Of a stretch of 57,064 nucleotides of DNA, positions 7,415 to 45,232 are shown in pieces; position 1 is the first letter of the stretch; the number at the start of each line of letters is the position of its first letter. Under the pieces are notes generated by a model that worked only from the letters and a program-made list of their open reading frames with translations, did no database searches and was not told the origin of the DNA. The stretch comes from Candidatus Lloydbacteria bacterium RIFCSPHIGHO2_02_FULL_50_18 (GTDB lineage Bacteria; Patescibacteriota; Minisyncoccia; Phycocordibacterales; UBA6899). Location: the NCBI GenBank assembly GCA_001821395.1, contig MHLM01000010.1, forward strand, positions 1 through 57,064. Direction: 5' to 3'. The position numbers and the translations under genes are program-made.

Positions 7415-7759
7415 ATGATGTCCGTACTGTCGATCTTTTTCGTTTTTCCGCTACTTTTTTTGAGCAATTGGTTCCTCGGCAAAAGAGGTTTGACACTCGC
7501 CATGAGTGACGCGGTGCTCGTCTGGACTTTGGCAATGGCGATTACGCACTCCTTGTTCTCACCGGTATCGTATACCGGGATTCTTGTTGCAGTTGCAGAA
7601 TCATTCGGGTACACCGTAGCGTTCAGTCTTGTTTACTGGCCGCTACCCAAACTTGAAGTATTGCTTATCTTCATTATTTTCGGTGTGGTGTCTTACTGCT
7701 TTGGACTCCTGCGCATCAAGCGCCTCAAGAAAAAAGGTTACGTAGAAAAAATAGCCTGA
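7415..7759 (+). CDS. Small hydrophobic membrane protein (hypothetical). The ORF-track start at 7370 is GTG; the ATG at 7415 is preceded by an AGAGG SD.
   Basis: ORF-track entry 7370..7759 has 3-4 predicted TM helices. An internal ATGATG at 7415 follows a Shine-Dalgarno (cagaggc). No family recognised. Confidence 0.4.
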   Translation: MMSVLSIFFVFPLLFLSNWFLGKRGLTLAMSDAVLVWTLAMAITHSLFSPVSYTGILVAVAESFGYTVAFSLVYWPLPKLEVLLIFIIFGVVSYCFGLLRIKRLKKKGYVEKIA

Positions 7760-7767
7760 CTAAAAAC

Positions 7768-7798
7768 AAACGCCATCCGGAACGGACGGCGTTTTTTT
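7768..7798 (+). terminator. Rho-independent terminator after the 7415..7759 gene
   Basis: GC-rich hairpin aacgccatccgg aac ggacggcgtt followed by TTTTTTT, 9 nt after the TGA at 7757-7759. Confidence 0.55.
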
Positions 7799-7912
7799 AT
7801 CCACATTTTTCAAACCCTACACCACACCGATCTCTTTAACGTGGGCATTCTTCATTAGAAAAACCTGCACATTAAAACATCCACAAAATCAGTACTACGC
7901 GTAGTAAAATTT

Positions 7913-7982
7913 CCAAATTGAGGTGCACCACAAGAGAACTTCATTTTTCTAAAACGGATTACCGTTAAGAAAAATTGGTCGC
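7913..7982. repeat. Intergenic repeat module A, copy 1 (contains the AACGG-ATTA-CCGTT hairpin); second copy at 17087..17151
   Basis: About 65 bp, ~85% identical to 17087..17151 (tgcaccac...acttcatttttctaa[a/g]acgg..taccgttaagaaaaattggtcgc). The stem ACGG/CCGT is conserved and the loop differs (atta vs ggta). Confidence 0.5.
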
Positions 7983-8060
7983 GATGCGAGGCAAAACAAG
8001 AGCACAAAAGTAAACTACGATAAAAGCTTTCACAATTTGGATGCGATTCGGCAAGTGCGC

Positions 8061-8162
8061 AATTTGGGATGAGCTGCGAGGCGACAAGGGGTGCGATGTC
8101 CGAGTGGACATACGTTGAGTATGTTCACCGGACTCGATCCCGCAGACAAAAAAGCAGATCGC
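8061..8162. repeat. Intergenic repeat module B, copy 1 (15-bp-stem hairpin GTCCGAGTGGACATAC/GTATGTTCACCGGAC); second copy at 17423..17523
   Basis: About 100 bp, >90% identical to 17423..17523 (gggatgagctgcgaggcgacaagggg.gcgatgtccgagtggacatac.ttgagtatgttcaccggactcg.tcc.cgcag...aagcagatcgc). Lies in non-coding DNA between convergent genes. Confidence 0.55.
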
Positions 8163-8178
8163 ACAAATTGCGTGCTTG

Positions 8179-9702
8179 CTACATGAGGAGCTTGCGGACG
8201 TCTTCCGCCTCTTTCGATATCAGCTCCTCCGAAAGATCGATCGCTTCATTGATGTTTTCCATGACCTCTCTGTCTTGAGCAGAAGGGTTCGGTTTTTGAA
8301 ATAAAGCTCCTGCCTGCTCCCCTATCTCCTCACGGAGTGCTGCAAAAATATTTCCCAAACTATCGCGGAGTTCATCCGCCTCACGTTTAGTGAGATACTT
8401 CTCTTTCCGAAACGCTTTTCGCTCATACCATAAATATCCGATCAGGAACGCAACAAGCGCAATAAGGAAAATGTTAGCGATAAGCGACCAGTCTGTTGGC
8501 TTTGGCGTATCGTCAACGGCGGCTTTTGCCGTCGCGGAAGGAACCTCTCCTTCGATCATAAACTTGCCGTCTACAGGAGTGTAATTCCCCGCTTTGTCAT
8601 AAGCCTTGAGCGTGGCGGAGTGCTCACCGGGTGTCTGGTTCGCTAGTGTATATTCACCATCTTTGATCTCGGCTAAGAGTATCTTTATCGGATTTCCCGC
8701 ATCAATGACAACTTCATAACGATCGATCCCCGACATCGTATCGGTTGCGGAGAATTTCATCTTTACATCGGTAGAAGAAGCGGGGACGGTAATATCCAGC
8801 GTGAATTCCGGTGGTGGCGTCTTGTCGACCATGATCTTTTTGTGCGTCACCGGACCCCAACCTCCTTCATTTTGATACTTCAAATGAAAGTACATCACCC
8901 CGTCGGTGAGTTGATCGAACTCCTTTTCATTGATCGCCGGATCGTAGCTCGTCTTAGGATCGGTCTTGGCACTCTTGTCGAGATCCATGCGCACGACCAT
9001 CACATCTGGCGGCAACTCCCACAAGAACCTTGCTTTGGGCGCATTGTAGTAAAGAGCCTCATCAGGATGAGATGTAGAAGTAACGTCCGGAGCTTCAGGT
9101 TTCGGTCCTAATGAGCCTACGTCGCCGCCCGAAGGAGCGGGAGGTGGTGGGGTGTTACTTGGAGCGGAGGCTGACACCGTATATGTGGCAATGCTTTTTG
9201 TACTTAAAATATCCGTACCTTTTCCGTCCGCCGCAAGTACAGAGCCCGTCGTGAAGGTGACATCGCTTTTCCCTTCTTTGACCCCCTTCAACGTGATGGT
9301 CAATATGGTCTTCTTTCCGGTAAGCCCGATCGTTCCCCCTCCGCCAAAGCTCAGTTTTCCTTCAGCGTTAGCAATGGTCGGCTCTTCCGGCCAGAATGAG
9401 AATGCTGAACTTGCCTTCGAGACACTTTCGAATGAAAGAATATTCTTATCAAAATTGATGACGGCATTCGCCGAGTTGAATGGTGCCGGCGACTCAACTG
9501 CAACAGTCACCGTAAGCGTCTTCCCTACCCCCATCGTTCCCGAAGGTGGACTGAACGAAAGCACCGCGCCCGTCGTCTGCACTTCTCCCGCCTGTTGCGC
9601 GAAAAGAATGCCCGGCGTACCGATGACCGCAAGTACGCAAAGGAAAATTCCAATAAGGCGTCTAGTAAGTGAGCGATGCATAAAGGTATGGCGGAGGAAC
9701 AT
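8179..9702 (-). CDS. Membrane-anchored surface protein: signal peptide, cohesin-like beta-sandwich domain, Pro-rich linker, C-terminal TM anchor, cytoplasmic coiled tail
   Basis: The ORF-track start at 9708 is GTG; ATGs at 9702 and 9681 both give MHRSLTRRLIGIFLCVLAV-type signal peptides. The N-terminal region GKTLTVTVAVESPAPFNSANAVINFDKNILSF...GKLSFGGGG...ILTITLKGVKEGKSDVTF matches the cohesin pattern. C-terminal hydrophobic stretch WSLIANIFLIALVAFLIGYLWY. Confidence 0.55.
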   Translation of the reverse strand: MFLRHTFMHRSLTRRLIGIFLCVLAVIGTPGILFAQQAGEVQTTGAVLSFSPPSGTMGVGKTLTVTVAVESPAPFNSANAVINFDKNILSFESVSKASSAFSFWPEEPTIANAEGKLSFGGGGTIGLTGKKTILTITLKGVKEGKSDVTFTTGSVLAADGKGTDILSTKSIATYTVSASAPSNTPPPPAPSGGDVGSLGPKPEAPDVTSTSHPDEALYYNAPKARFLWELPPDVMVVRMDLDKSAKTDPKTSYDPAINEKEFDQLTDGVMYFHLKYQNEGGWGPVTHKKIMVDKTPPPEFTLDITVPASSTDVKMKFSATDTMSGIDRYEVVIDAGNPIKILLAEIKDGEYTLANQTPGEHSATLKAYDKAGNYTPVDGKFMIEGEVPSATAKAAVDDTPKPTDWSLIANIFLIALVAFLIGYLWYERKAFRKEKYLTKREADELRDSLGNIFAALREEIGEQAGALFQKPNPSAQDREVMENINEAIDLSEELISKEAEDVRKLLM

Positions 9703-10224: not shown

Positions 10225-10410
10225 ATGATCAAAAAGTACAATTAACTAGTAACCCCAGCCTCCCTAAAACAAATTTCTAAAAGTTGTTCGGGCGAACATT
10301 TTTTATCAGAAAAAAATGTTTTAGCCCAAAATATTTACCACGGTAGAGTTAGATACATTATACGTGAGTTTACGAATGATGTGCAATGCATATGTGAACA
10401 AGAAGTGGAT

Positions 10411-10603
10411 ACCGCTCGGGTAATAACTTTTCGGAGCATATTTGCCCGCTGAGAGCGGTCGGGCAAAACCATCCTCAATATGAATGCCGCTTGCAAGGCC
10501 TAGCGGACCAAGCCATTCATCTGCAGGGGCAACTTTGTTTTCTTAAAAGCGTAGCGAATGAGAAATACAAGAAGTACCCTTGTGGCGCTCCGAAAGTCTT
10601 ACT
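10411..10603. repeat. Intergenic repeat D, copy 1 (candidate structured element); second copy at 23466..23671
   Basis: A ~120-bp core (CCGCTT..GCCATTC.TCTGC.GGGGC.ACTTTGTTTTCTTA...AG.GAAT.AGAAA.ACAAGAAGTACCC.TGTGGC.CTCC.AAAGT) is ~85% identical to 23555..23665. It carries the internal hairpin tttgcccgctgagagcggtcgggcaaa. Both copies sit immediately upstream of minus-strand genes. Confidence 0.5.
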
Positions 10604-10654
10604 TTCGCGTTCAGAGAAAATGCTTTGATCTTCACCCTATGAAGAAATAGATTT

Positions 10655-13651: not shown

Positions 13652-13776
13652 GGGTAGCGTGTAATTTGCGATGCAGAACGCGAAGCAAACAAAACGTGAA
13701 ACGAGGCGTACTCGGAGTACGTTGAGTGAGCGTTGCAGTTTGCGACAAAGTGCTGCGCGCAAATTACACGCTACCC
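13652..13776. repeat. Long inverted repeat: perfect 19-bp arms GGGTAGCGTGTAATTTGCG/CGCAAATTACACGCTACCC separated by 87 bp, overlapping the stop codon of 13771..15531
   Basis: Arms at 13652-13670 and 13758-13776. The spacer has its own hairpin (gcgtactcggagtacg). The minus-strand transcript would have TATTTTTA 5 nt after the stem, so this may be an unusually long terminator or a MITE-like element. Confidence 0.5.
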
Positions 13777-15531
13777 TGTCCAGTTGGCGAGCATGATCGA
13801 AAAGTCCACAAGATTCACCGTCCCATCCTGGTTGATGTCTGACACAGGGTCTGCACCTTTCCAATTGAAGAGCAATATCGAAAAGTCGATGAGATTCACC
13901 TTCTTGTCTTTGTTCAAGTCTGAACGATTTGAAAAATCGGGATTCGGAGAGCCGCCTATCCCGATATAGACGATCGGACTCAAAAGACTCTGGTCTTTCT
14001 TAGAGATCTGCGAAAGGGCTTTCACTTCAAAGGTCCCCTTCAGCAGTCCATCAGTAGGCAGCGTCATGCTCCAAGAGCCATTCCCATTCGCTGTCGTTGT
14101 TCCCGTAACGATCTTTCCCGACAGGGCATTCCCCTGCATGTTCATGATCGCAAGCACGGGGACGAGTGGTGCCCCATAACCGCTTAATCGTATCGTGTCA
14201 CCAACACCGATGGTCGTTGAAGCGGCAGTGATCGTTGGAGAAACATACACGGGGGCGATGATATTGTTCGTGCGGGCGATAAGATAGATCGTCGAGGAAT
14301 ACGTTGAGGAGAGCCTGCCCTTTTCATCGCGCACATAGACCCCCCATGTATAAGTGCCACGCTGCAGGTCGGTGAATTTTTCCGAAAAATCACCGCTCTG
14401 CGAAACGGTTCCCTCTCGTACGATCACACCGTCTTTTAATATCACGAAGGCAGAGAGCGGCGCGGCCTTTCCTTCAAGCGTCACGTCACCTCCGTTCATA
14501 AAAAGACCACCACCACCACCGGGACCCGATATGCCACCGCCGCCGGGAGAAGCAGGAGGTGGTGGCGGCGGTAAAGGAGGTGTGCTGGACGCTCCCGGTT
14601 CGACGCCTACCTCAAAATAAATAAGCATGTCGTCCGAATTCGCTACCAACGATGGTGTCTGACACCGTACATAAAAACTATAAATGGTATTCGTTGCCAC
14701 CGCCTCGGAACGATAGTGAAGCGATCCAAAATTCGCTGCGGTAAAACTCGTACTCCCCAGCATGTTCGTGTAGAGCACTCCGCTCGTTGTCGCATAGCGA
14801 CATGTTGCCGGGATATCGGTATTGAGCGATAACCAAACATTCTGTGTGGTACCCGGCAACAGCCCAGAAGGAAGACCGTTGCTCCGCGTCGGTTCGAAGA
14901 TCGGCAGCTCAACCGAGATACCCACCGGGAGAATGATGACAACGACTGTTGATCCGAAATCCAATTCACCATTGAGTACATTAGTGGTCAAAAGACGCAG
15001 GTGGCGCGAACCGACCGAAGCGGGATTTTCAATCGATAAAGTTCCAACCCCGCCGAACGTCGCAATGTCACCGATAGTGATCTTCACCGTATCCCCCGCA
15101 AGAATTCCCGCTCCGGAAGCGAGCGAAAAGACAATCTGACCGGATGCACCGGAAGTAACAGCGACGCCGATATTTGCCGCACTTGGTGTCGCCGCAAGCG
15201 TACGGTTTGTGAATGGTCCGGACGATGTACCTGCAACAGACAGATCGATATCCAAAAAACTCAATGCCGCGGGAATGATAAACCCCTCAGTAGGGCTGAT
15301 CACAATATGTCCGCTTGGAGGTATCGCCGTTGTGGCAGTGAACTGAATGACATGTGAGGTCGTCGTCGCTCCGGGCGCTGAGTTCGATATGGTGTCACTG
15401 ACAAAAGAAAGCGTCCCCGCATACGCAAACGGGGTCGATATGAAAAAAAAGAAAGCAGCAGAAACCCCGAGTGCGAGCGAGCGTACATATCGGCGTTGTT
15501 GATTAAAATGATGTAGGGAAAATTGTCTCAT
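13771..15531 (-). CDS. Secreted protein with a Pro/Gly-rich region and a C-terminal type I dockerin domain
   Basis: Signal peptide at the N-terminus. The C-terminus DLNKDKKVNLIDFSILLFNW...DINQDGTVNLVDFSIMLANW shows two dockerin Ca-binding repeats (DxNxDGxVNxxD). A PPLPPPPPPASPGGGG linker is present. Confidence 0.7.
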   Translation of the reverse strand: MRQFSLHHFNQQRRYVRSLALGVSAAFFFFISTPFAYAGTLSFVSDTISNSAPGATTTSHVIQFTATTAIPPSGHIVISPTEGFIIPAALSFLDIDLSVAGTSSGPFTNRTLAATPSAANIGVAVTSGASGQIVFSLASGAGILAGDTVKITIGDIATFGGVGTLSIENPASVGSRHLRLLTTNVLNGELDFGSTVVVIILPVGISVELPIFEPTRSNGLPSGLLPGTTQNVWLSLNTDIPATCRYATTSGVLYTNMLGSTSFTAANFGSLHYRSEAVATNTIYSFYVRCQTPSLVANSDDMLIYFEVGVEPGASSTPPLPPPPPPASPGGGGISGPGGGGGLFMNGGDVTLEGKAAPLSAFVILKDGVIVREGTVSQSGDFSEKFTDLQRGTYTWGVYVRDEKGRLSSTYSSTIYLIARTNNIIAPVYVSPTITAASTTIGVGDTIRLSGYGAPLVPVLAIMNMQGNALSGKIVTGTTTANGNGSWSMTLPTDGLLKGTFEVKALSQISKKDQSLLSPIVYIGIGGSPNPDFSNRSDLNKDKKVNLIDFSILLFNWKGADPVSDINQDGTVNLVDFSIMLANWTG

Positions 15532-17086: not shown

Positions 17087-17151
17087 TTCAAGGCACCACC
17101 GGGAGTACTTCATTTTTCTAAGACGGGGTACCGTTAAGAAAAATTGGTCGC
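17087..17151. repeat. Intergenic repeat module A, copy 2
   Basis: See copy 1 at 7913..7982. Confidence 0.5.
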
Positions 17152-17222
17152 CAAGGACTCACCTTTGAAGCTTTCAGCATCAGAAAGAGTTAATTGGGGA
17201 TGGTATTTTTTTTTCGCTAGCC

Positions 17223-17279
17223 GATGACAAATATGCAGCTGTGGGCAAAGTCCCACTACTGCGTATTTGCTTTGGCGTC
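17223..17279. repeat. Hairpin module C, copy 1 (conserved flanks gatgacaaat / ttgctttggcgtc; stem atatgcagctgtggg/cccactactgcgtat; loop caaagt)
   Basis: Paired with 17544..17600. The flanks and the caaagtcc segment are conserved, while the stem sequences are entirely different but remain complementary in both copies. This is compensatory variation. Confidence 0.5.
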
Positions 17280-17422
17280 TCCAGTAAAAACTTTCATAAT
17301 TGGGATGCACCACGGGGGCACTTCCAATTTCATACTCCCTTCGGTCGGTGAAATTTAGGTCGAAGGACGAGGTGAAATCTAATCGTACTTTTTTATAGCA
17401 GAAGTACTCGAAAAAATACGAT

Positions 17423-17523
17423 ATTCGGGATGAGCTGCGAGGCGACAAGGGGGCGATGTCCGAGTGGACATACTTTGAGTATGTTCACCGGACTCGCTCC
17501 CCGCAGTCAACAAAGCAGATCGC
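17423..17523. repeat. Intergenic repeat module B, copy 2
   Basis: See copy 1 at 8061..8162. Locus 2 carries an extra ~115-bp insertion upstream that is homologous to 27238..27289. Confidence 0.55.
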
Positions 17524-17543
17524 CCGAATTTCGTATTTTAACC

Positions 17544-17600
17544 AATGACAAATTCATAGCATCAGACAAAGTCCAGATGCTATGAATTTGCTTTGGCGTC
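17544..17600. repeat. Hairpin module C, copy 2 (stem attcatagcatc/gatgctatgaat, 12 bp perfect)
   Basis: See 17223..17279. Confidence 0.5.
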
Positions 17601-17727
17601 GTGATGCTTTCAAATTGAGATGAAGAACGAGTTGAAATACAGATTTTGCTAGCAAGCCTTACTCCTGTAAGGTGAGGCGCAAAATCTGTATTTCAACGAA
17701 GTAATTCGCTCAATTTGGAAACATCAC
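17601..17727. repeat. About 127-bp imperfect palindrome with a perfect 18-bp inner stem (ttgaaatacagattttgc / gcaaaatctgtatttcaa) overlapping the stop codon of 17724..18788
   Basis: Outer arms gtgatgctttcaaattgag... / ...ctcaatttggaaacatcac are imperfect. The inner arms at 17631-17648 and 17678-17695 are perfect. No U-tract follows on either strand. Confidence 0.5.
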
Positions 17728-18788
17728 CCGAAATAGAAGAAGAGGATCAATAGTCCCACAATGATCGCAAACAATAACCCGATCGCCACTGCCGCCAAAC
17801 GCGAGATACCTCGCGCACCGCGCACCGCTCCCCCTCCGCGTGTACCCACCACTCCCGCTAACTGTCGACGCACATAGAGGCGGATCAAGACGTAGAGCAC
17901 GAGAATGAATGTGAAGAGTCCTCCAACGACCGGCCCGATGATGTTCATGGGGAGTATCCAGAATGATGTCACCGAGGAAATGGTCTGATTCCCTCCGTCA
18001 ACGAGAGGGATGACGAGCGCGACGACCGCCTCGAAGTGTCCGATCACAAATCCTTCAGGCTGCCACTTTACCTCATACTTTCCCGTACTATTCGGGGAAA
18101 TAACGTATGCGGTCTCATTGACGAGCAGTGATTCGACCTTCTTTCCGAACATATCGGTGATGTCGATCAAGCCTTGCGGTCGAGAAAGCGTATTCCCTTT
18201 ATTCTCCGCTTCAACGGTAAAGATCACGTTTGGAGAGCCGTAAATGAGCTTGTCGGTGAGGAATGCACGCATGCGTGTGTCTTCTTTGACATCACCCGCC
18301 ATTTGAAAATGAAGAATAGCCCCAATGTCAAACCCGACGGCAGAACCCTCCTTGAGATCGGGCGGTTTCTGCGTCAGAAACAATCCCGCAAGGTGTGAGC
18401 CGGGGCGCGCGTCAGCGGGAAATTTAACGGTAAAATGCAGCGTCGCACTACCGCCGGCAGGAACATCGAGCATTGATTCTGAATACGTGATCCACGACGC
18501 GAGCTCGGTCGCATTTGCATCGGCACCCTCCACGTAAACCGGCTGATGATCTAGAGCGATGGTGGCAATGTTCCGGGCAACGGGGTATAGCACAGTCCCC
18601 TGGTCGCCGCGATTTTCGACACGCATCGAATATGAGTGTTCCGAACTCGGCTCAACCTTATCTTCGATCGTCGTCGGGGAAAGATTAAAACTCACCTTAT
18701 TTTGCGCGAAGACCGCAAACGGCGTCATCAGCATGGCGGAACATGCGACAACAACAGCACCTCTTAATATCGTATTAGATCTCAACAT
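17724..18788 (-). CDS. Surface protein with signal peptide, beta-rich ectodomain, C-terminal TM helix and Arg/Gly-rich tail (DUF916/DUF3324-like architecture, assigned from memory)
   Basis: Signal peptide MLRSNTILRGAVVVACSAMLMTPFAVFA and C-terminal FWILPMNIIGPVVGGLFTFILVLYVLIRLYVRRQ. Paralogous to 24432..25817 and 25838..27109, which share the FWI(I/M)PW...TM motif. Confidence 0.5.
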   Translation of the reverse strand: MLRSNTILRGAVVVACSAMLMTPFAVFAQNKVSFNLSPTTIEDKVEPSSEHSYSMRVENRGDQGTVLYPVARNIATIALDHQPVYVEGADANATELASWITYSESMLDVPAGGSATLHFTVKFPADARPGSHLAGLFLTQKPPDLKEGSAVGFDIGAILHFQMAGDVKEDTRMRAFLTDKLIYGSPNVIFTVEAENKGNTLSRPQGLIDITDMFGKKVESLLVNETAYVISPNSTGKYEVKWQPEGFVIGHFEAVVALVIPLVDGGNQTISSVTSFWILPMNIIGPVVGGLFTFILVLYVLIRLYVRRQLAGVVGTRGGGAVRGARGISRLAAVAIGLLFAIIVGLLILFFYFG

Positions 18789-19033: not shown

Positions 19034-20185
19034 CTAGAAGATCGGAGTACAGACGTAGGTGATAACGTTGTTGTAGTCGACAGCGGCTTCCTGGAGTGCG
19101 GTGACCTGTACGCGATATCCGACACGTGTCTTTCCGATGTTGTCAGTTGTTCCATCCGCAACAGCATTATGATAGAGCACGGTTCGTGTCGACGTCGCGG
19201 TAAGTCCGGCATAGAGCGACGTACCAAAGGCATCTGTTGGAAGCGATGAATCTTCAGATGTCACACCCATATGTCCATAGGTCTCGGTAACTCCAAGAGT
19301 TCCAGCGGGTGTCGTCCATGCAACAGGGGCACCAGTCACCGCTTCATTGTCCTTAAACGCATTAATGTTCGCACCATTTGCTGAGGTAAGATCCTGGTTT
19401 TCAGTGATCGTCACAGAGAAGCCATTGAATGCATTCGTCGCTACGGTGATGTCTTGCGCTGCTATTGAGGATGTACCGACAGAGATGACACCGAACCCAA
19501 TAGCAGTTGCTGATGTTGAGGTCGACGTCGTATCACCATTTATCATAGAACTTGAAGCAACGCCGGCAATCGTAAAGGTCAAATTAGTGTCGACGATGGC
19601 GGTCATAGTGACGGAACTAATGATCGCGATGCGTGTATCTGCGGCATCAGTCATGGTGCCGTTTATACGAACAACATAGGATCCATTCGTACCATTGACG
19701 ACATGCGCATTGGAGATATTCACGAGAATAGCTCCTGCGGCGATAGAATCACCAGTACATGTAGTAAATTCTATATAATCGGGATTGGTGCCTTGATTTG
19801 AGGCATATATCTCATCTGTACCCCCCGCACACGCACCGATATTTGCAACCTGAGTAAGACCACCACCGGTACGTGAAATATGCACATCGGTACCGAGGGC
19901 CACCGCAGAAACATCAAAAGTATTCCCGGTCGGATCAAACGTGATGCGTGTTGTGGATCCGGTAGAACCACCGATGGGATTTACGGTCGTGAATCGCACC
20001 ATATAGTTAGTAGAAACCGATGGCGCTGATGAGGACGCGGTTGCGCTCACAGACAGCAACTGCGACGCAGATGCAGTATTAAAAAGAAACGGGAGGCCGA
20101 GTGCCCATGAAAGGGTTGCGACGACGAGGGTCGTGGCGAGCCACTTCATACGAATTAAAGAACGAAATGCGCTTGTGTAGTCCAT
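19034..20185 (-). CDS. Secreted Ser/Thr-rich beta-rich protein, paralog 1 of a tandem triplet (conserved N-terminus ASQLxSVSATASSSAPS..TNYMVRFTTVN and C-terminus ITYVCTPIF)
   Basis: About 60% identical to 20608..21765 and 21805..22980 over the full length. Signal peptide present and 4 conserved Cys. No recognised domain; the WxL-like idea is unconfirmed because no W-x-L motifs were seen. Confidence 0.6.
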   Translation of the reverse strand: MDYTSAFRSLIRMKWLATTLVVATLSWALGLPFLFNTASASQLLSVSATASSSAPSVSTNYMVRFTTVNPIGGSTGSTTRITFDPTGNTFDVSAVALGTDVHISRTGGGLTQVANIGACAGGTDEIYASNQGTNPDYIEFTTCTGDSIAAGAILVNISNAHVVNGTNGSYVVRINGTMTDAADTRIAIISSVTMTAIVDTNLTFTIAGVASSSMINGDTTSTSTSATAIGFGVISVGTSSIAAQDITVATNAFNGFSVTITENQDLTSANGANINAFKDNEAVTGAPVAWTTPAGTLGVTETYGHMGVTSEDSSLPTDAFGTSLYAGLTATSTRTVLYHNAVADGTTDNIGKTRVGYRVQVTALQEAAVDYNNVITYVCTPIF

Positions 20186-20390
20186 AGTGTGAACTTTTAT
20201 TTTGATAACGAATAACGGCTTGCAAAATTGGAGAATTTGCAGCGGGAGAAAGTGAAGCGTCTATGTTCTCATCGTATGCATATTCTTTGTGGGAAGAATA
20301 TGCGGATCGCCTAGAACACTTCTGTTATTCGCGAATGGGATGTTTTGTGTTGTTCGCTGTTTGGTTAAACATCGAACTCACCTGTCGTTA

Positions 20391-20523
20391 ATTATACAGT
20401 ACCTGTGGAAAAACAGTGCGCTAACGGTGGATAACTGTGGATAACTATTAACGAGAACCATACTTCCACTGTAACAGAGGGGTGTCGGACCACAGCATTA
20501 ATTCAACTTTTGTTATCCACAGG
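20391..20523 (-). promoter_or_regulatory. Promoter of paralog 1: a -10 TATAAT (plus-strand attata at 20391-20396) directly abutting a conserved ~45-bp element with three direct TGTGGAWAA-like repeats, plus an inverted TTATCCACA at 20513-20521
   Basis: The element cctgtggaaaaa.agtg....aac.gtg.ata.ctgtggataact (20402-20446) is near-identical to 23362-23406 and lies at the same distance from a TATAAT in both copies. The -35 is poor, which suggests activator dependence. Confidence 0.5.
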
Positions 20524-20547
20524 AGTGGACAACTTCCCCACAACAAA

Positions 20548-20592
20548 CAAAATACCCCGCCATATTGAAATAGGGCGGGGTATTTTATTTCT
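20548..20592 (-). terminator. Rho-independent terminator after paralog 2
   Basis: Hairpin aataccccgcc atattgaaatag ggcggggtatt, with a T-rich run on the minus strand, 16 nt after the stop at 20608. Confidence 0.6.
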
Positions 20593-20607
20593 TCTAGTAA
20601 ACTAAGA

Positions 20608-21765
20608 CTAGAAGGTAGATGTGCAGACGTATGTGATCTGGTTCGTGTAGTCTGATGCAGCCTCCTGCAATGCCGACACTTGAATACGGAATCCAACCCG
20701 AGTTTTACCAATATTCGCCGTGGTACCATCAGCAGGTCCAGTGTGAAAGAGGATTGTACGCGTCGATGTCGACGAAAGCCCTGCATAAAGCTGTGAGCCA
20801 AAGTCGTCACCGGGAAGCGATACGTCTTCCGAAGTAATACCCATATGCCCGTAAGTATTTGGACTACCGATCGTTCCCACTGGTGCTGTCCAAGCTGTCG
20901 GCGAGCCGGTCACTGCATTCCCATCCTTAAATGCATTGATCGTTGCGCCATTTGCCGAAGTGAGATCCTGATTTTCGGTCACCGTAACACTAAAGCCGTT
21001 CAACGCATTAGTTGAGACCGAAACATCCTGTGCTGCAACAGAAGAGGTTCCAACAGAGAGTGTCCCGAATCCAATTGCGGTCGCAGTACTCGACGTCGAA
21101 GTCGTATCGCCGTTCACGGGGGAACTCGACGCTACTGTGGCGATAGTAAACGTTAGGTTCGTATCGACGATTCCCGTCATGGCAACCTGATTAATGATCG
21201 CAACGCGTGTATCAGCGGAGTCAGCCATCGTACCATTAATCCGTACGACATACGATCCGGATGCAGAAGGATTCACGGCATGTGCACCAGCTATATTTAC
21301 CGTTATAGTACCGGCAGCAATGATATCCCCGGGGCACGTTAAAAGCTCTACATAGTCGGATGCACCTGCAACGACTTGAGACACATACATTTCGCTCACG
21401 GCTCCCGAACACGATCCGAATGCAGCAACCTGCGTAAGACCTCCAGTTAAACGAGAAACTGTTACATTGCCGTTCGTAAGCGCAGTGAGATCAAAGAGTC
21501 CGCCTTGGGGATCAAACGTGATACGCGTTGTCGAAGCCGTAACTGCCTGCCCTATTGCATTCACTGTCGTGAATCGCACCATATAGTTTGTCGCAATGGA
21601 AGGCGCTGACGACGATGCGGTTGCGCTCACAGAATTTAGCTGTGATGCGTAAGTCGGAGTGAATAGCTGGAATGCCGGAAATATCCAACCGACCATTGCG
21701 ATGATGATCGCGGCAGAGATGACTCTCGAGCTCATGAGATGCAATGATCGGTTGTAATAGTTCAC
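20608..21765 (-). CDS. Secreted Ser/Thr-rich protein, paralog 2 of the triplet
   Basis: See paralog 1. Only 39 bp separate it from paralog 3 upstream, so the two are probably co-transcribed. Confidence 0.6.
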   Translation of the reverse strand: MNYYNRSLHLMSSRVISAAIIIAMVGWIFPAFQLFTPTYASQLNSVSATASSSAPSIATNYMVRFTTVNAIGQAVTASTTRITFDPQGGLFDLTALTNGNVTVSRLTGGLTQVAAFGSCSGAVSEMYVSQVVAGASDYVELLTCPGDIIAAGTITVNIAGAHAVNPSASGSYVVRINGTMADSADTRVAIINQVAMTGIVDTNLTFTIATVASSSPVNGDTTSTSSTATAIGFGTLSVGTSSVAAQDVSVSTNALNGFSVTVTENQDLTSANGATINAFKDGNAVTGSPTAWTAPVGTIGSPNTYGHMGITSEDVSLPGDDFGSQLYAGLSSTSTRTILFHTGPADGTTANIGKTRVGFRIQVSALQEAASDYTNQITYVCTSTF

Positions 21766-21804
21766 AGGTAATTCTTATTGGTTGAATAAATAGACACGAG
21801 AAAG

Positions 21805-22980
21805 TTAGAAGATCGGCGTGCAAACGTACGTGATCTGATTGGTATAGTCTGTCGCTGCCTCCTGAAGTGCGCTGATCTGTACGCGGAATCCAACGCGCGT
21901 TGCACCAACATTTGCAGTCGTTCCGTCTGCGGGTCCGGTGTGATAGAGAACGGTACGCGTCGATGTCGCAGTCAGTCCGGCATAGAGCTGGGTACCAAAT
22001 TCATCAGCATCACCGACAAGAGTGGCGTCCTCTGAGGTAATACCCATATGACCATACGTATTTGGACTACCGATCGTCCCTGTTGGATCGGCACCCCAAG
22101 CTGTCGGTGAACCAGTCACCGCATTCCCATCCCTAAATGCGTTGATCGTTGCACCATTCGCCGAGGTAAGGTCTTGATTCTCGGTCACGGTGACGCTAAA
22201 ACCATTCTTCGCATTCGTTGAGACCGAAATGTCCTGTGCCCCGATAGAAGAGGTTCCAACGGAGAGGGTCCCGAATGGAATAGAGGTTGCCGTAGAGAGC
22301 ACATTGGTTGTGTCACCGTTCACCATAGAGCTTGAGGCAACAAGGCCGATCGAGAAGCTGAGGCTACTGTCGACCGAAGCGGTCATCGTGACGGTACTCA
22401 CGATCGCTACGCGGGTATCCCCTGTATCCGTCATCGTGCCGCCGATGCGCACGACATAGGAGCCGGTTACTGCGGGATTCGTGACGTGTGCATTCCTGAA
22501 AGTTACCGTTATAGCACCCGCTGCGATAACGTCCGTATCGCAAGTTTTAAATTCGACATAGTCAGCCGGCTCTGTTTTTCCAATGCGATCTACATAAATT
22601 TGACTAGCGCCACCGTTACACGCCGCAAGATCAGCAACTTGCGTCAACTCGGCCCCCGTAATTACAATATCGGCAGTGCTCGTTGCCAAAGAAGTAAGAT
22701 CGAAGGAATTTCCCGTAGGATCAAAAGTAATACGTGTTGTTGAAGCAAAAGTTGCTGCAGCACTACCAATTGCATTCGCAGTGGTAAATACGACTGCATA
22801 ATTCGTGGAGAGCGATGGTGCGGACGAAGACGCCGTCGCAGAGACCGACGCAAGCTGTGCTGCCGATGAAGTATTAATAAGAAACGGAATACCGACTGCC
22901 CAACCGATAGTGGCGGTGAGAAGTACGATTCCGAGCCCTTTCAATCGGGCAAGATATCGAAACATGTGTGTGTAGCTCAT
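21805..22980 (-). CDS. Secreted Ser/Thr-rich protein, paralog 3 of the triplet
   Basis: See paralog 1. Ends ITYVCTPIF. Confidence 0.6.
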   Translation of the reverse strand: MSYTHMFRYLARLKGLGIVLLTATIGWAVGIPFLINTSSAAQLASVSATASSSAPSLSTNYAVVFTTANAIGSAAATFASTTRITFDPTGNSFDLTSLATSTADIVITGAELTQVADLAACNGGASQIYVDRIGKTEPADYVEFKTCDTDVIAAGAITVTFRNAHVTNPAVTGSYVVRIGGTMTDTGDTRVAIVSTVTMTASVDSSLSFSIGLVASSSMVNGDTTNVLSTATSIPFGTLSVGTSSIGAQDISVSTNAKNGFSVTVTENQDLTSANGATINAFRDGNAVTGSPTAWGADPTGTIGSPNTYGHMGITSEDATLVGDADEFGTQLYAGLTATSTRTVLYHTGPADGTTANVGATRVGFRVQISALQEAATDYTNQITYVCTPIF

Positions 22981-23350
22981 AAAGAACTAGTGGGATAAAA
23001 AACATCAAGTTGACGAAACTATGCGCAACGATCCACGAATTCTTGCTCCAACGTTCAGAAACTTGTTGTGACACGCACCTGCATGTCCTCGTTTTCCTCC
23101 GTCAGCGCACGCAGTCTGTGGATCATTATTCACAAGTTTTGCAACTTGGTGGGATGAATAATGGCAAACTGAACATTCCAACAAAAAATGCGCTATTCGT
23201 TCTTCTTCATCGGCGAGTGCCGAGAATAAGCCGAGACATTAAAAAACTTGTGGATCGTTTTTCAATGCAACAATTGGGATGGTGATTCCTCCTGTACCGT
23301 CGTCCTCGGAGTGTGGATATCCGAGAATACATAGAATGCACCTAGTATTT

Positions 23351-23406
23351 ATTATAACCTGCCTGTGGAAAAAGAGTGGACAAACTGTGAATAGCTGTGG
23401 ATAACT
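23351..23406 (-). promoter_or_regulatory. Promoter of paralog 3: a -10 TATAAT (plus-strand attata at 23351-23356) abutting a second copy of the TGTGGAWAA-repeat element (23362-23406)
   Basis: Same architecture as 20391..20446. Further TGTGGAT copies occur at 23115-23124, 23249-23258 and 23312-23321 between this promoter and the start codon. Confidence 0.5.
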
Positions 23407-23465
23407 TTCGCTCCAGATTTCACTATTTGAAAAACACATCATCAATTTTTCCAGCAAAAAATTGT

Positions 23466-23671
23466 GATTCCGCTCGGCGGGTCTGCTTCACCAAGAGGCG
23501 AAGACCATGCCAGACCCAGCTGCCTCCGCGAGGTTTTTCAAACAGTGAAACCCTCCGCTTCACAGAGTACATCGACCGAGCCATTCGTCTGCGGGGGCGA
23601 CTTTGTTTTCTTATGAACGAAGTGAATTAGAAAAACAAGAAGTACCCCTGTGGCACTCCCAAAAGTTTATC
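23466..23671. repeat. Intergenic repeat D, copy 2
   Basis: See 10411..10603. A flanking direct repeat c.ctccatagggagg occurs twice (23680-23692 and 23737-23749). Confidence 0.5.
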
Positions 23672-23775
23672 CTCGCTCCATAGGGAGGAACAACACCGTC
23701 GCGGTCCGTAGCCCCTCGAACAGTAATACCTCACTCCATAGGGAGGTCATTATTCATTCACTTATACCGGCCCTC

Positions 23776-24054
23776 CTATCGAAAAAGAGAGTCGTGTGAT
23801 CCCAAGTCAACGAGGAGAAGTACGAGTATACCCTCGTGCTTCTGATACACGAGCAGTATGTCATTCCCAACGTGGCACTCGCGATAATTCTTTAGATCAC
23901 CAGAGAGTTGATGGTCACGATACCCGGTTGAAAGCTTTTCTCCGACGGCAAGTGCGTCAATCACGACATCGAGATCATGCTGAACAAAATCCTTGTGCCG
24001 CAAAATCCGCTTGTATGCTTTTCGATATGCTTTTGTGGAGCGAACAATATACAT
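23776..24054 (-). CDS. relE: RelE/YafQ-family type II toxin (mRNA interferase)
   Basis: HQLSGDLKNYRECHVGNDILLVYQKHEGILVLLLVDLGSH matches the YafQ/RelE C-terminal catalytic region. 92 aa, 2 bp downstream of the antitoxin gene. Confidence 0.75.
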   Translation of the reverse strand: MYIVRSTKAYRKAYKRILRHKDFVQHDLDVVIDALAVGEKLSTGYRDHQLSGDLKNYRECHVGNDILLVYQKHEGILVLLLVDLGSHDSLFR

Positions 24055-24056
24055 AC

Positions 24057-24332
24057 CTAGCGATTGCCAAGAATGTCATCGTGCAATTCTTTTGCGGTAC
24101 GGTATGAGGGACCATGCTTGAGTGCATACTCTGCCTCCTTGATCAGCTGTCGTTTCTTCTTCGTCGGCCAGTAGTCGGCACTGACGACGGGAAACGGTAT
24201 CGCCTGTTTATTGACGACTTGGGTAAGATACAATTTCACCCCGGAGGACATATCGAGTCCCATTGCACTAAATGTTTTTTGTGCCAACTCTTTTGTTTTT
24301 TTATCAATGCGGATTTGTAGCGTGGTATTCAT
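24057..24332 (-). CDS. relB: RelB/DinJ-family antitoxin
   Basis: MNTTLQIRIDKKTKELAQKTFSAMGLDMSSGVKLYLTQVV is typical of DinJ/RelB. The ORF-track start at 24338 is TTG; the ATG at 24332 is preferred. Confidence 0.75.
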   Translation of the reverse strand: MNTTLQIRIDKKTKELAQKTFSAMGLDMSSGVKLYLTQVVNKQAIPFPVVSADYWPTKKKRQLIKEAEYALKHGPSYRTAKELHDDILGNR

Positions 24333-24359
24333 GGGCAAAGTGTACCCTCCCTCTGTTTG

Positions 24360-27367: not shown

Positions 27368-30300
27368 TTAGAACGTCGGAACGACGAGGTATATCAGTCT
27401 TACCGAATAACTTCCCGCGGGCTGGGCGTTCCTCACATCAAGCCGATAGACCATATTCGCGACATCAGCGGTAACCGGTCCAGAATTGTACATGACCTCT
27501 TCGAGTGTTGTAGAGGCGAACGGAGCGTATGTATCATTCATCAGAAAACGCGTCGAGCCCGCTCCCAGCGTGTCATCCCCCGCATGATATCCGAAACATC
27601 CGGAGAGCGTCCCGGGACAGGCTGTCGCCCAATCGAGCGGAACCGCGTTCGTACTTTCCACGTCGGGAATATCTCCAACGGATGCAGTGAACCGGCCATC
27701 TGTGCCCAAAAATACCTGATACCCATTTTCCGCATTCGTCGTGACCGAAAGTTGCTGTGCGGCGGTCTTCCCCGTCCCCGGAGTAATGGTCATGAATGAG
27801 GTTTGTGTCGGCGTCGTTCCCACATCGGTCGTCACCCCCTCCGTCACCGTCGATGTCGCGAGCCCGGAAATACTGAACGAGAGCGTCGTGCCCTCTACGG
27901 AGAGCGACGGATAGCTCGCGAGCGCTGCGAGCGGGACCGGGCGATTGTGATTCACATCGTACGCGCGGAAGAAGTACGTAGTATTGAAATATGCACGACG
28001 CCCGATGATCGTGAATTCGTATTCCGTTGCGGTCGACGCCGGCGCATAAAATGTCGTCGTGTTCGTCGCCGACTCATTATGTGTACCATTCGCAGCGGAG
28101 TCGGAGAGTACGCGCGCGGTGATCGGATCATTATTGGTATCAACTCCGTTCCCATAGCACCACTGTGACATCGCCACACATGTCGAGGTCGACTCAACGT
28201 AATTCACATTCGTGGAAAAATCAGAGTAGGTTGAGAATTGCAGACGGAATTTCTGATTCGGGCCCATCGATGCATTGGTCTCGTTGATCGTGAGACGGAG
28301 TTTGATCGTGTTGCCGTTCGCGACATTTGACGGTGCGACGATCTCGCCCGCACCCGAAAGCGATACGGATGGATTCGCACTGGTCTCATCATCATACCAA
28401 TGCCATTTTTTCTCCTCGGGCATAAAACCGCGCGTCGTGATGACGGGGTAAAAATCGTAACTGAAAAGCGCACTACCGTCCGATTTTGTCATTCGGAAAC
28501 AGTACGGCGTATTCGTCGCGGCATTATTACTCTGAATATTCCAGTCATATTCAACATCATTTCCCACGATCACCGCAAATGGATTCACTGCCGTCGGATT
28601 GGATTCCTGATATGTTCCTGCGGAATCAGACACTGAGAGGAGCACGGTGCCCCCTGGTGGAGGATCTCCTCCTGCAAGCTGTGCCCCATCGGTAATAGTT
28701 GGTGCGTTGTATCCTCTCCAAAGTACACCCGAGGCAGGAGCGCCAAGATCGGTCCACGAAGCGACCGCTCCGCACGAGGTCACTTTTTGCGCGAACTGCA
28801 AATTGAATTGCGTCGATGACGCGGTCATCGTCGTGGTCGCGACCTTGAGTGACATGCGCAGGCGTATGCGGTCCCCATTTGCGGGAGGATTGTCCGCCGC
28901 GGTGATCTCCGCATTCTCACCAAGATTTCCCAGACCCGATGGCCACGCGACGGTCGGGGTGAGCGCACCATTGTCCTGATAGAGTCGGAAATAATTTTGC
29001 GTAAATGTCGGGACCAAAAGCTCTTGATTCGCGTCGTAGGTCACGACCACGATATTCGCGAATGATGCCAAGTTTGCCTGACTCTTCGACTCATTGATCT
29101 CGATAACGCGCTCATTCCATAAAATAGTATTACCGTTCGAGAACGTCGATGATGCGATCGGGGCGAAATAGGTTGAAACATACGCTTCATTCAATGTCGC
29201 GTTGGTATCGACAGACTCTTGCACCACAGTAGAAGAGCCATTCACGCCGATGGTAAGATTTCCGATAGCAATATTCGTTGCCTGTGAGTGCATGAACTTC
29301 GTCTCAAGATATGCGCTCCGGTATGTCTTTGTCACTGTCTCGGGAAGATCGATATATGCAGGTCGATTATTGTAATCATTCGCTATCGCATCGAGTCCTT
29401 GCTGAGCGGCCGAAAATGTCACCGTCTGCGTTTGCGGACCGCCAAATTTTCCGCTCCACGTGAACGTGAAATATACCTCGACCGCCATCGGGGCCGCGCC
29501 AGCCGTATACTGCTCGGCCCCTGCAATCGCAGTTGCGGCGGTAAAGAAATTTTCCGCCTTGTCGGACAGATCGAATATCAAATTGAAATCATCACCCGAA
29601 CGCGGATTCACACCACCGATAGTAATGGCGCGTGAAACTTCCGACGATGTCCCCACCTTGCCATAGATAGTGATATTCGCAGTCGAGGTTGCTGCCACAT
29701 GCGCCTTGAACCACACATTCTGCATTGAAAGCCCCGTGTTCGATATGGTCATCGTTGTCGTAGGAAATTCACTGCGTGCGTTCCCCGGAGTGGAGGTCGC
29801 GTCCTGATTCATAAAGTAGCGCACTGTTTCTGTTTGTGCTGCCGCACCAGTCGAGTAATTGTACGTCACCACGAGTTCACCACCCAAGGCGTTCATCGGG
29901 ATAGTCCCCATGAGGACATTAAATTTCATGGTTGCATTGCGCTGAAAATTAGGACTTCCCACCGTGGGACGCCAGATGGCTGTCTTTGTGTTGTCGTCGG
30001 TAAGTGCTTCTGTCCAATTGTATGCAGTTGATGTCGCATTCCCCCCACTCCCACCCTGAATACCGATCTGAAAAGTCGATGCAGCCGCAACAGTGTCAGT
30101 CTCTCCGTGTATCTCTACATACACATCAACAATGTCCGCATCAGCAACGGCATCGGGTGTCGTCGATGTTGCTAGGAAAGAACAAGTTGTCGCCGCCGCA
30201 CATGCGGTGCTTCGTGTTCCGCGATCACCTGCGACCATTGAGGATAGCGGGAATCGTACTGTCTTCGTTTCCGTGTGTGGAACGAGCGAAAAGTTTTCTT

Positions 30301-35907: not shown

Positions 35908-35924
35908 ATGTATTGCTCGCACAA

Positions 35925-35955
35925 AAAACCCCGCACTTACGTGCGGGGTTTTTTG
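35925..35955. terminator. Bidirectional rho-independent terminator between the convergent genes 35296..35907 and 35973..36281
   Basis: aaaaaa ccccgcac ttac gtgcgggg ttttttg. Confidence 0.7.
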
Positions 35956-35972
35956 TATGTTGGATCGCAATA

Positions 35973-44348: not shown

Positions 44349-44538
44349 CCATTAATAAGTTGCCATAAAAAATGGATGATGCACAAAGGACCGTCACCAC
44401 CAATAACTATGAAGTTATTGGTGGACGAGTCCTAATGCCCCGTCCATTAATAAGTGGATAGATATGGCCGTGGCACAAGGGGCCGTAATCACGAATAACT
44501 ATCATGTTATTAGTGAACGGCCCCTAAGCTCACTCCTT
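44349..44538. repeat. Two tandem ~95-bp direct repeats, each carrying a palindrome (CACCAATAACT atga AGTTATTGGTG at 44398-44423; a degenerate copy at 44484-44501)
   Basis: The units begin ccattaataagt at 44349 and 44444. They lie between the convergent dedA and pilin genes. Confidence 0.5.
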
Positions 44539-45199: not shown

Positions 45200-45232
45200 A
45201 AAAAAACCGCTCCTTTCGGAGCGGTTTTTTAG
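45200..45232. terminator. Bidirectional rho-independent terminator (after the csp gene)
   Basis: aaaaaaa ccgctcc tttc ggagcgg tttttt. Confidence 0.7.

Follow-up and report, generated by a model that had tools for sequence, protein, structure and literature searches.

A probable cluster of lineage-specific mosaic extragenic palindromes in Candidatus Lloydbacteria

What occupies the 419 nt between two converging genes in a groundwater CPR bacterium? The gap in question, positions 7760-8178 of a 57,064-nt stretch of a Candidatus Lloydbacteria contig (hereafter the window), is bounded by a plus-strand gene that ends at 7759 and by a minus-strand gene for a cohesin-domain protein (8179-9702). Genomes of CPR bacteria are small, at about 1 Mb, and contain little non-coding DNA; our literature search found no interspersed repeat family described for them. 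The original prediction had recognized two repeated modules, A and B, in the gap and had proposed that they represent either small structured RNAs or a MITE/REP-like family. In our best reading, the gap is one cluster of lineage-specific mosaic extragenic palindromes of Candidatus Lloydbacteria, which are REPIN-, BIME- and BOX-like and match no described family.

Both modules proved to be genuine repeats. Module A contains the expected hairpin AACGG-ATTA-CCGTT (7953-7966), and 7934-7982 is 92% identical to 17103-17151. Module B, with its stem GTCCGAGTGGACATAC / GTATGTTCACCGGAC (18 bp, interrupted by two single-base bulges and containing one G.U), aligns over 8053-8173 with 17414-17534 at 88.5% identity overall, and its 97-nt core is 94-95% identical between the copies that begin at 8050 and 17411. 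The recurrence of both modules in the 17-kb gap was thereby confirmed, at 17.1-17.5 kb and 88-95% identity. When the 339-nt region was folded and compared with shuffled sequences, z was -4.8 for the plus strand and -2.9 for the minus strand. Two parts of the original description were refined. The long-stem hairpin of module B is present, but module B is not a whole unit; it is the inner part of a 130-nt hairpin that is closed by an outer 16-bp helix (8051-8066 / 8164-8179). Similarly, the repeated sub-units beginning aatt(t)gggatg were recovered at 7916, 8034 and 8061, but rather than being independent units they form the 5' end of a family of rod-shaped foldbacks (described below). A regex search located the same motif at 17192, 17298, 17613 and 23272, with every occurrence on the plus strand, and the 16-nt form TTTCANAATTGGGATG, allowing up to 3 mismatches, gave 7 matches against 2.0 expected, a count reached by 0 of 100 shuffles.

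Inverted repeats of 16-19 bp, spaced 87-97 nt apart, mark five units of 125-133 nt in the window (8051-8179, 13652-13776, 17413-17539, 17601-17727 and 23418-23550). The first four, termed U1-U4, fold to near-continuous rods of about 55 bp with a length of 125-132 nt. Three covariance models were employed in the analysis: R1 for module C (a further hairpin described below), R2 for module A and R3 for the rods. The fifth unit, U5, at first resembled a rod but was rejected: its minus strand gives the better fold and R3 does not detect it, and for these reasons we regard it as a different element. The window belongs to JGI metagenome contig 3300002502 C687J35174_10000351, and NCBI lists an identical cohesin protein in a Candidatus Lloydbacteria bacterium RIFCSPHIGHO2_01_FULL MAG. 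Two protein searches yielded further related loci, and 4-21 kb per relative were covered: L088, L089, L090, L091, L093, L094 and L095, together with L087 and L092, which share a sample. The closest species representatives by TldD were a Parcubacteria MAG (L007, 90% amino acid identity) and Candidatus Lloydbacteria GFS_12411 (L008, 84%), the latter being syntenic with the window over 2.5-20.4 kb. Among the rods of these relatives, type F lies 3' of a 354-aa gene in L087 and L088, type G lies 3' of the cohesin gene in L008 and L092, and G2 lies 3' of the Big_6/dockerin gene in L087. R3 was trained on U1, U3 and the two F rods. The features of the window are as follows.

7910..7925, plus strand: orphan rod 5'-terminal motif (TTTCCAAATTGAGGTG), found by regex motif search; the gap holds no matching 3' arm
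7926..7986, plus strand: module A1, consisting of a CACCAC leader, a 13-bp interrupted hairpin at 7943-7975 (apex AACGG-ATTA-CCGTT) and then GGTCGC-GATG; R2 83.9 bits, E = 5e-17; 91% identity to the L088 copy
7983..8026, plus strand: likely remnant of a rod interior (GATGCGAGGCAAAAC...), judged by comparison with the composite of module A and a hairpin in L088
8027..8043, plus strand: second orphan 5'-terminal motif (CTTTCACAATTTGGATG), 1 mismatch; 86-90% identity to rod termini of L087 and L088
8050..8179, plus strand: rod U1 (module B plus outer helix); inverted repeat I19; R3 129 bits (plus) vs 36 (minus); minimum free energy -68.8 vs -55.4 kcal/mol
10525..10587, minus strand: module-A-like hairpin; R2 18.7 bits, E = 0.17, a weak match; inside a 103-nt repeat (10506-10608) with 81% identity to 23574-23676
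13652..13776, plus strand: rod U2, divergent, with a perfect 19-bp outer helix; inverted repeat I3; R3 with filters off 30.1 bits, E = 4e-6 (plus) vs 11.5 bits (minus); free energy -69.7 vs -56.0 kcal/mol
17094..17155, plus strand: module A2; R2 77.7 bits; 88-92% identity to A1
17214..17283, plus strand: module C1, a 60-nt hairpin whose foot (CCAATGACAAAT...ATTTGCTTTGGCGTC) is conserved and whose stem varies; R1 79 bits
17286..17367, plus strand: rod 5'-terminal motif (17286-17307, 0 mismatches) followed by module A3 (17308-17367; R2 55.4 bits), a divergent copy with its stem changed on both sides
17411..17540, plus strand: rod U3, the second module B copy; inverted repeat I9; R3 131.9 bits (plus) vs 45.6 (minus)
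17535..17604, plus strand: module C2; R1 87 bits
17601..17727, plus strand: rod U4; inverted repeats I5 and I2; R3 39.5 bits (plus) vs 16.6 (minus); free energy -67.4 vs -59.2 kcal/mol
23593..23655, minus strand: module-A-like hairpin; R2 25.3 bits, E = 0.005

Most rods start with (AAAA)CTTTCAnAATTKGG and end with CCMAATTTGGAAG(TTTT). Because these two ends pair with each other, the aatt(t)gggatg sub-units are rod 5' termini. In complete rods the motif seen at 7910-7925 supplies one side of the basal helix, the 5' strand. Since neither 7910-7925 nor 8027-8043 has a 3' partner in the gap, both are orphan halves. The stretch between them at 7983-8026 is without the long hairpin that comes after the same motif in L088. 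In complete rods the interior is free in sequence, self-complementary throughout and fixed in length. Fixed irregularities occur on one strand, as a bulged base after CTTTCA and then a bulged A with a U.G (T.G) pair; the bulged A followed by the U.G pair after the terminus was seen in every rod aligned or folded. In U1 this feature sits at 8069-8070, after the outer helix, and the apical 18-bp hairpin spans approximately 8095-8137. Two further hairpins accompany the rods. Module A, an accessory 60-nt hairpin made of the CACCAC leader and a 13-bp stem, is always positioned directly after GGATG in the 5' arm. Module C is a 60-nt hairpin in which the foot and loop are conserved and the stem is free. 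The termini differ among rods: those of F, G and U4 are common to all three, whereas those of U1, U2 and U3 differ. F and G rods terminate in an A-tract...U-tract and can be written as GTAAAAC-5 nt-AATTTGG ... CCAAATT-5 nt-GTTTTAC, in which the ends carry AAC and GTT. Their TA flanks are indistinguishable from an extension of the inverted repeat, such that a target-site duplication is not provable.

Base pairing is maintained by covariation in all three families. In the rods, 18 of 40 pairs were changed on both sides. The corresponding figure for module C was 13 of 23, with 81% of cells paired as compared to 30-47% when the partner was slid, and 0 of 500 shuffles reached the observed score; in module A, 93.5% of cells were paired and 4 of 16 pairs had changed on both sides. 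Across these controls, at most 2 of 500 shuffles reached the observed values, and slid controls were 30-56% paired against 81-94%. A direct illustration comes from U1 and U3. The 17-bp outer helix of U3, AAAATACGATATTCGGG / CCCGAATTTCGTATTTT, is wholly unlike that of U1 in sequence and yet the helix pairs in both, although the two cores are 95% identical. R3 also detected rods on which it had not been trained, namely G of L092 (101 bits), G2 of L087 (96), G of L008 (53), U4 (39.5) and U2 (30, filters off), and it gave no match in 19 alphaproteobacterial control loci.

The rods are also asymmetric with respect to strand. For each of the eight rods folded on both strands (U1-U4, F of L087 and L088, G of L092 and L008), the plus strand was more stable by 4-22 kcal/mol, and R3 scores for U1 and U3 were 129-132 bits on the plus strand vs 36-46 on the minus strand. 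Five independent rods contain 24 G.U pairs on the plus strand, against 5 positions at which the minus strand would have G.U (p = 5e-4). After subtraction of the two conserved wobble positions the tally, our own count from position lists for six rods, was 20 vs 7. The asymmetry looks selected, since the local composition of the plus strand (C>G, A>T) predicts the opposite. Wobble pairs in module C show the reverse, weaker trend (3 on the plus strand vs 11 on the minus strand), and by the same strand counts C1 pairs slightly better on the minus strand.

Rods are placed on stop codons. Three of the four window rods (U1, U2 and U4) touch or overlap a minus-strand gene's stop codon: U1 ends on the first base of that codon (CTA) in the cohesin-domain gene 8179-9702, the 3' arm of U2 includes CTACCC, which is the stop codon plus the last codon (Gly) of gene 13771-15531, and the 3' arm of U4 spans the stop codon TCA (17724-17726) and one further base (TCAC) of gene 17724-18788. 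In F and G rods the final bases are GTTTT(T)TA, of which TTA is the stop codon. All stop-codon rods (U1, U2, U4, F, G and G2) have a single orientation relative to the adjoining minus-strand gene.

Comparison with the relatives revealed both conservation and turnover. The same repeat families occur in four related assemblies, where they are shuffled, truncated, nested and swapped at the same gene ends, and three other assemblies are without them. Besides the window, the loci counted as rod-bearing are L008, L087/L092 and L088, and those counted as rod-free are L093, L094 and L095. Each related locus holds 1-2 rods, and the 57-kb window holds 4. Modules are 81-91% identical between genomes, as in the two F rods (81%); C1 and C2 are 89% and 84% identical to their positional orthologs in L008, while C1 and C2 are 71% identical to each other. 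For comparison, codons for identical residues of the flanking 354-aa gene agree between genomes at 40-61% of their third positions. Since synonymous sites retain 40-50% identity and modules 81-91%, the modules appear to be under selection. Within one genome, copies at unrelated sites are 88-95% identical. At the same time, the rod present at a given gene end changes from genome to genome. Rod type X is found 3' of Big_6 in L007 and 3' of cohesin in L095, and type G is found at the cohesin gene in L008 and L092 and at Big_6 in L087. The end of the Big_6 gene carries U2, X or G2 depending on the genome, something else in L008, and none of these in L094 and L095. In L093 the region 3' of the cohesin gene contains nothing but a plain terminator, and in L094 and L095 this region is without the modules described for the window. 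In L008 and L092 the 5' half of module B occurs alone, truncated at the tip of the hairpin and joined to rod G, and module A lies inside the 5' arm of rod G in L008 but is absent, with clean boundaries, from rod G of L092. A-like copies are found on both strands.

A series of searches returned no known element. Comparison with Rfam, which the original prediction had suggested as a check, matched no family in the whole window at the gathering score, and a relaxed Rfam search of four gaps (E up to 5-10) yielded chance-level hairpin matches alone. No tRNA or tmRNA was found in the window. The modules contain no conserved small ORF, and we rejected the possibility that they are coding because the short ORFs lie in different frames in B1 and B2 as a result of an indel. 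Among 30 scanned proteins of the 57-kb window, Pfam identified no transposase, RAYT, integrase, reverse transcriptase, Cas or Nop domain. An exact 20-mer of module B gave two chance matches in a metagenome collection, in a scan that missed the source contig as well, and patterns for modules A, B and C and for the rod termini gave chance matches or none in viral contigs. Ordinary terminators were likewise rejected as an identity for the rods. Canonical short, G+C-rich terminators with T-runs are present at 7768-7794 (two-way, after the gene ending at 7759), 35921-35956 and 45201-45230, whereas U1-U4 have no T-runs.

Of the two possibilities first proposed, the MITE/REP-like one fits these data better, and discrete small RNA genes fit less well, since the copies are fragmented, nested, present in both orientations (module A), swapped at orthologous sites and without a promoter or terminator of their own. 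An RNA-level function may exist beside such behavior. We tentatively favor, at somewhat short of an even chance, a reading in which the elements are handled as single-stranded hairpins by a strand-specific hairpin-binding enzyme and are spread or exchanged between gene ends. The basic unit would be the 125-132-nt foldback rod, module B being one such rod. A protein that recognizes these hairpins in a strand-specific manner would copy or exchange them between gene 3' ends, much as with REPINs and RAYT or with IS200/IS605-type HUH enzymes, and a rod, once inserted, would place a hairpin of about 55 bp at the stop codon in the transcript of the adjoining gene. Several observations count against this mechanism. 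No transposase, RAYT or integrase was detected among the scanned window proteins, a target-site duplication is not provable, and the rods differ from REPs, which measure 20-50 nt and follow a GTAG that is not conserved here. The rod interiors of orthologs and module A are conserved far above neutral, which exceeds what is predicted for a purely selfish spacer and fits an RNA or host function. In addition, IS200/IS605-type enzymes favor the lagging-strand template, whereas the better-pairing plus strand is not the lagging-strand template as judged by GC skew and gene orientation.

The conservation of the interiors leads to a possible, though less than probable, alternative, namely that rods and modules are a family of small structured RNAs made from the plus strand, antisense to the adjoining genes, processed from array transcripts and bound by a protein through the bulged A and U.G pair. 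Covariation, the fixed rod length, the G.U asymmetry with its conserved U.G on the plus strand, and conservation well above that of synonymous sites all favor such RNAs, and in three arrays the 3' foot of module C together with the rod terminus forms a sigma-70-like TTGGCR-17/18-CAYAAT. However, a promoter at this site would initiate inside the rod, past the 5' arm, and the rods, which lack terminators of their own, extend into the stop codons of convergent genes. Truncated half-rods, orphan termini and nested modules are difficult to reconcile with discrete RNAs, as are the presence of differing rods at one orthologous site, their complete absence from close relatives, and the lack of any Rfam family match even at E up to 10. 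If the transcript of interest were instead that of the minus-strand genes, the elements could function in mRNA 3' ends as stabilizers against 3' exonucleases, as unusual terminators or as modulators of translation termination; the last is conceivable because the basal helix sequesters the stop codon. Three of the four window rods, as well as F, G and G2, hold the stop codon of three different genes within the basal helix, and these rods must be transcribed with those genes. The better pairing of module C on the minus strand (3 vs 11 wobble pairs) and the A-tract...U-tract ends of F and G rods agree with this idea. We nevertheless consider it unlikely, given that minus-strand pairing is poorer in 8 of 8 rods folded both ways, that the conserved wobble positions turn into C.A mismatches on that strand, that the organism has ordinary short terminators, and that the same genes are without rods in L093-L095.

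Exchange of genes or gene ends within the surface-protein cluster could also be brought about by an integron-like or other hairpin-directed cassette system in which the rods serve as attC-like sites. The rods are imperfect palindromes of variable sequence with fixed architecture and length (125-132 nt), and one of their strands has extrahelical bases; they are located over the stop codon at gene 3' ends, in a single orientation relative to the gene, and the F and G termini have AAC and GTT at their ends. Gene content at the junctions varies (an APH gene in L008 and L087, no TldD/PmbA in L091), and a RelB/YafQ pair is nearby. Against these resemblances, the 57 kb contain no integrase, synteny is largely preserved between species whose proteins are 56-84% identical, the 5-nt "spacer" forms base pairs instead of staying open, the ends of U1-U4 are without AAC and GTT, and the rod bulges lie on the gene-distal arm, opposite to those of attC bottom strands, which have them on the other arm; we therefore judge attC-like sites to be highly unlikely. 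A broader version seems quite unlikely: the rods might be sites of an undescribed hairpin-directed, strand-specific, stop-codon-aimed CPR system, either a single-strand recombinase that swaps 3'-end modules or whole genes within surface-protein clusters, or an RNA-protein system in which rod RNAs of ~130 nt, recognized by the bulged A and U.G, act on converging genes. TIGR systems are known from CPR bacteria, and one TIGR type has tandem units whose stems vary yet are always palindromic (PMC12045711), which raised the possibility of a TIGR-Tas-like array of stem-loop guide RNAs. This was rejected as very improbable on the basis of unit anatomy and the absence of a Nop-domain (Tas) protein from the window: rods of 125-132 nt are paired nearly end to end, without loops that hold two 8-12-nt spacers flanked by UG and CCA boxes, and their internal sequences are conserved between copies rather than variable. 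There is hardly any chance that the locus is a one-off segmental duplication of otherwise meaningless spacer DNA, the interpretation that the original prediction had attached to a finding of only two copies and no covariation. The window does have two close copies each of modules A and B in the same order. The pieces, however, are separate (49-61 nt and ~100-120 nt) with differing flanks, and the outer helix of B is wholly different between copies and yet paired in both. Covariation, further copies within the window (13652, 17601 and the minus-strand A-like copies) and the same families, carried elsewhere in four related Lloydbacteria assemblies, where they show compensatory changes and are conserved beyond neutral expectation, together exclude a simple duplication.

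The mosaic palindromes take up several hundred bases per gap with modular, selected, strand-specific hairpins that cover stop codons in genes for cell-surface proteins. A REPIN-like nature would point to a hairpin-recognizing enzyme that has persisted in a lineage of streamlined episymbionts; as RNAs, the palindromes would constitute a new multi-copy RNA family. The three covariance models (R1-R3) make this question testable on public MAGs and groundwater metatranscriptomes.

Several known systems invite comparison with these elements. Integron attC sites are defined by R'' (RYYYAAC) and R' (GTTRRRY) boxes together with an L box; their central spacer is unpaired, and their extrahelical bases belong to the bottom strand. 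The rods resemble them as structure-defined palindromes of similar length with extrahelical bases, one active strand and a position in the stop-codon region of the upstream gene, but differ in the absence of an integrase, the paired central spacer, bulges on the other arm and AAC/GTT in F and G rods only; the syntenic gene order in L008, L087 and L094 is also not cassette-like. MITEs that depend on a DDE transposase have terminal inverted repeats common to all copies and a direct target-site duplication, and the Correia/NEMIS elements among them are 100-160 nt long, fold into rods through inverted termini, are TA-flanked and have terminal promoter-like hexamers. The F and G rods, with TA...TA flanks and promoter-like hexamers, are similar to the TA-flanked, IS630-like Correia/NEMIS/RUP elements (general MITE features, PMC3049150). 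Unlike MITEs, in which inverted repeats are limited to the termini, rods are self-complementary over their full length and their interiors differ between rods, and neither a parent IS nor a provable duplication was found. BOX elements (boxA-boxB(n)-boxC) of pneumococcus and S. suis are intergenic, are transcribed together with neighboring genes and combine paired end modules with an independently folding inserted module in variable number (PMC3049150), an arrangement that module A, in the 5' arm after GGATG, recalls in the manner of boxB between boxA and boxC. The two differ in that no sequence similarity exists between them, module A occupies one arm of an otherwise complete hairpin, and BOX has proven target-site duplications and more than 100 copies.

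A close parallel is with REP and REPIN elements. Genomes with these elements carry a RAYT (Y1 HUH transposase) gene, usually flanked by REPs, and tens to hundreds of dispersed extragenic copies; with a genome of ~1 Mb, rod copy number is probably far below this level. REPINs have conserved inverted ends around a spacer that keeps its length and its capacity to form a hairpin, with frequent compensatory changes (PMC3116915), and the rods match this description: their termini are conserved, the interior varies but stays paired, both partners have changed in 18 of 40 pairs, and the length is 125-132 nt. REP hairpins have conserved bulges and are read strand-specifically on single-stranded DNA (PMC8266576). 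The rods depart from these families in unit size (125-132 nt vs 71-110 nt for REPINs and 20-50 nt for REPs), in a conserved end of about 15-18 nt, in interiors that are conserved between species and in the absence of a RAYT from the window. REPs are preceded by GTAG, whereas the 5' ends of rods are GTAA (F, G), GTAG (U2), GTGA (U4) and GCAA (U1); these bases are paired and reflect the adjoining gene's stop codon, rather than being a free conserved motif. With GTAG not conserved, a larger size and no RAYT in the window, REP membership is not established, and we therefore file the locus as a variant of the extragenic palindromes. Like REPIN, REP and BIME elements, its repeats are extragenic, form clusters and mosaics, occupy gene 3' ends and leave orphan "singlets" as remnants (PMC3116915, PMC8266576).

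Hairpins of the type of module C, a 60-nt element with a conserved foot and a variable stem, were found in L091, a locus whose source is related more remotely, at 56% protein identity. There, at 8682-9337, they are duplicated in tandem and alternate with a second hairpin, the array surrounding an assembly gap of Ns. Given their presence in so distant a relative, module C is older than the rods, the 125-132-nt foldback hairpins of the window. The further repeats, hairpins and annotated features considered here are as follows.

Further features of the window
7797-7805, 20369-20446, 20514-20522 and 23329-23406: DnaA-box-like 9-mers and a 78-nt repeat
10321-10635, 17134-17488 and 23423-23750: public gene-table "genes" of ~320 nt, with products of just 27-31 residues
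10506-10608 and 23574-23676: 103-nt repeat, 81% identity between copies, with a module-A-like hairpin within, minus strand
19034-22980: three tandem paralogous genes, products of 383-391 aa
23418-23550: 133-nt hairpin with an outer helix of 18 bp, minus strand the better fold
44387-44527: three hairpins side by side, in the gap where two genes converge

The hairpin at 23418-23550, which has a folding energy of -63.8 kcal/mol on the minus strand versus -46.5 on the other, matched neither the covariance model of the rods nor any Rfam family. Its counterpart is kept, with a ~100-nt insertion and at another position, in L095 (6827-7197), from a relative at 70% protein identity. The cluster at 44387-44527, whose outer two hairpins are direct repeats of one another, gave folding z-scores of -9.2 (plus strand) and -7.5 (minus strand) and is unrelated to the rods in sequence.

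Sequences resembling module A, the ~60-nt accessory hairpin, also occur elsewhere in the window. The 10.5-kb copy of the 103-nt repeat lies inside a ~220-nt stretch, with the PmbA terminator on one side and the HSP20 promoter on the other, that is missing from the related loci L007 and L092. The segment 27242-27288 is 81% identical to the divergent module A copy A3 (17316-17362) and overlaps the start codon recorded for a 471-aa minus-strand gene. The three ~320-nt gene-table entries coincide exactly with three repeat-rich gaps, and module B, the inner part of two rods, does not preserve the 31-aa product (17393-17488, minus strand) in its second copy. A RelB antitoxin/YafQ toxin pair (23776-24340) adjoins a repeat-rich gap.

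Between 2500 and 7200 (~4.7 kb), the only ORFs are short ones on the plus strand (at most 207 aa). This region aligns to L008 17421-21191, which is broken up to the same degree, in a single alignment at 71% identity across 3.8 kb; it may represent several small genes in succession or one large gene in decay. The 1777-aa gene (27368-32701) contains internal repeats of ~1.76 kb at 75-77% identity (repeat families D3, D4 and D6). In L100 1-3100, a strain variant of the window's far end, the PNPOx gene has tRNA genes and a gene of the HTH_38 (IS30-like) type beside it, where other contigs carry an Smr gene.

The DnaA-box-like 9-mer TTATCCACA occurs twice in the window, and TGTGGATAAC stands in tandem at 20428-20446. 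The 78-nt repeat (76%) holding such 9-mers lies upstream of two of the three tandem paralogous genes. As GC skew shows no turn, a shared operator is more likely here than an origin.
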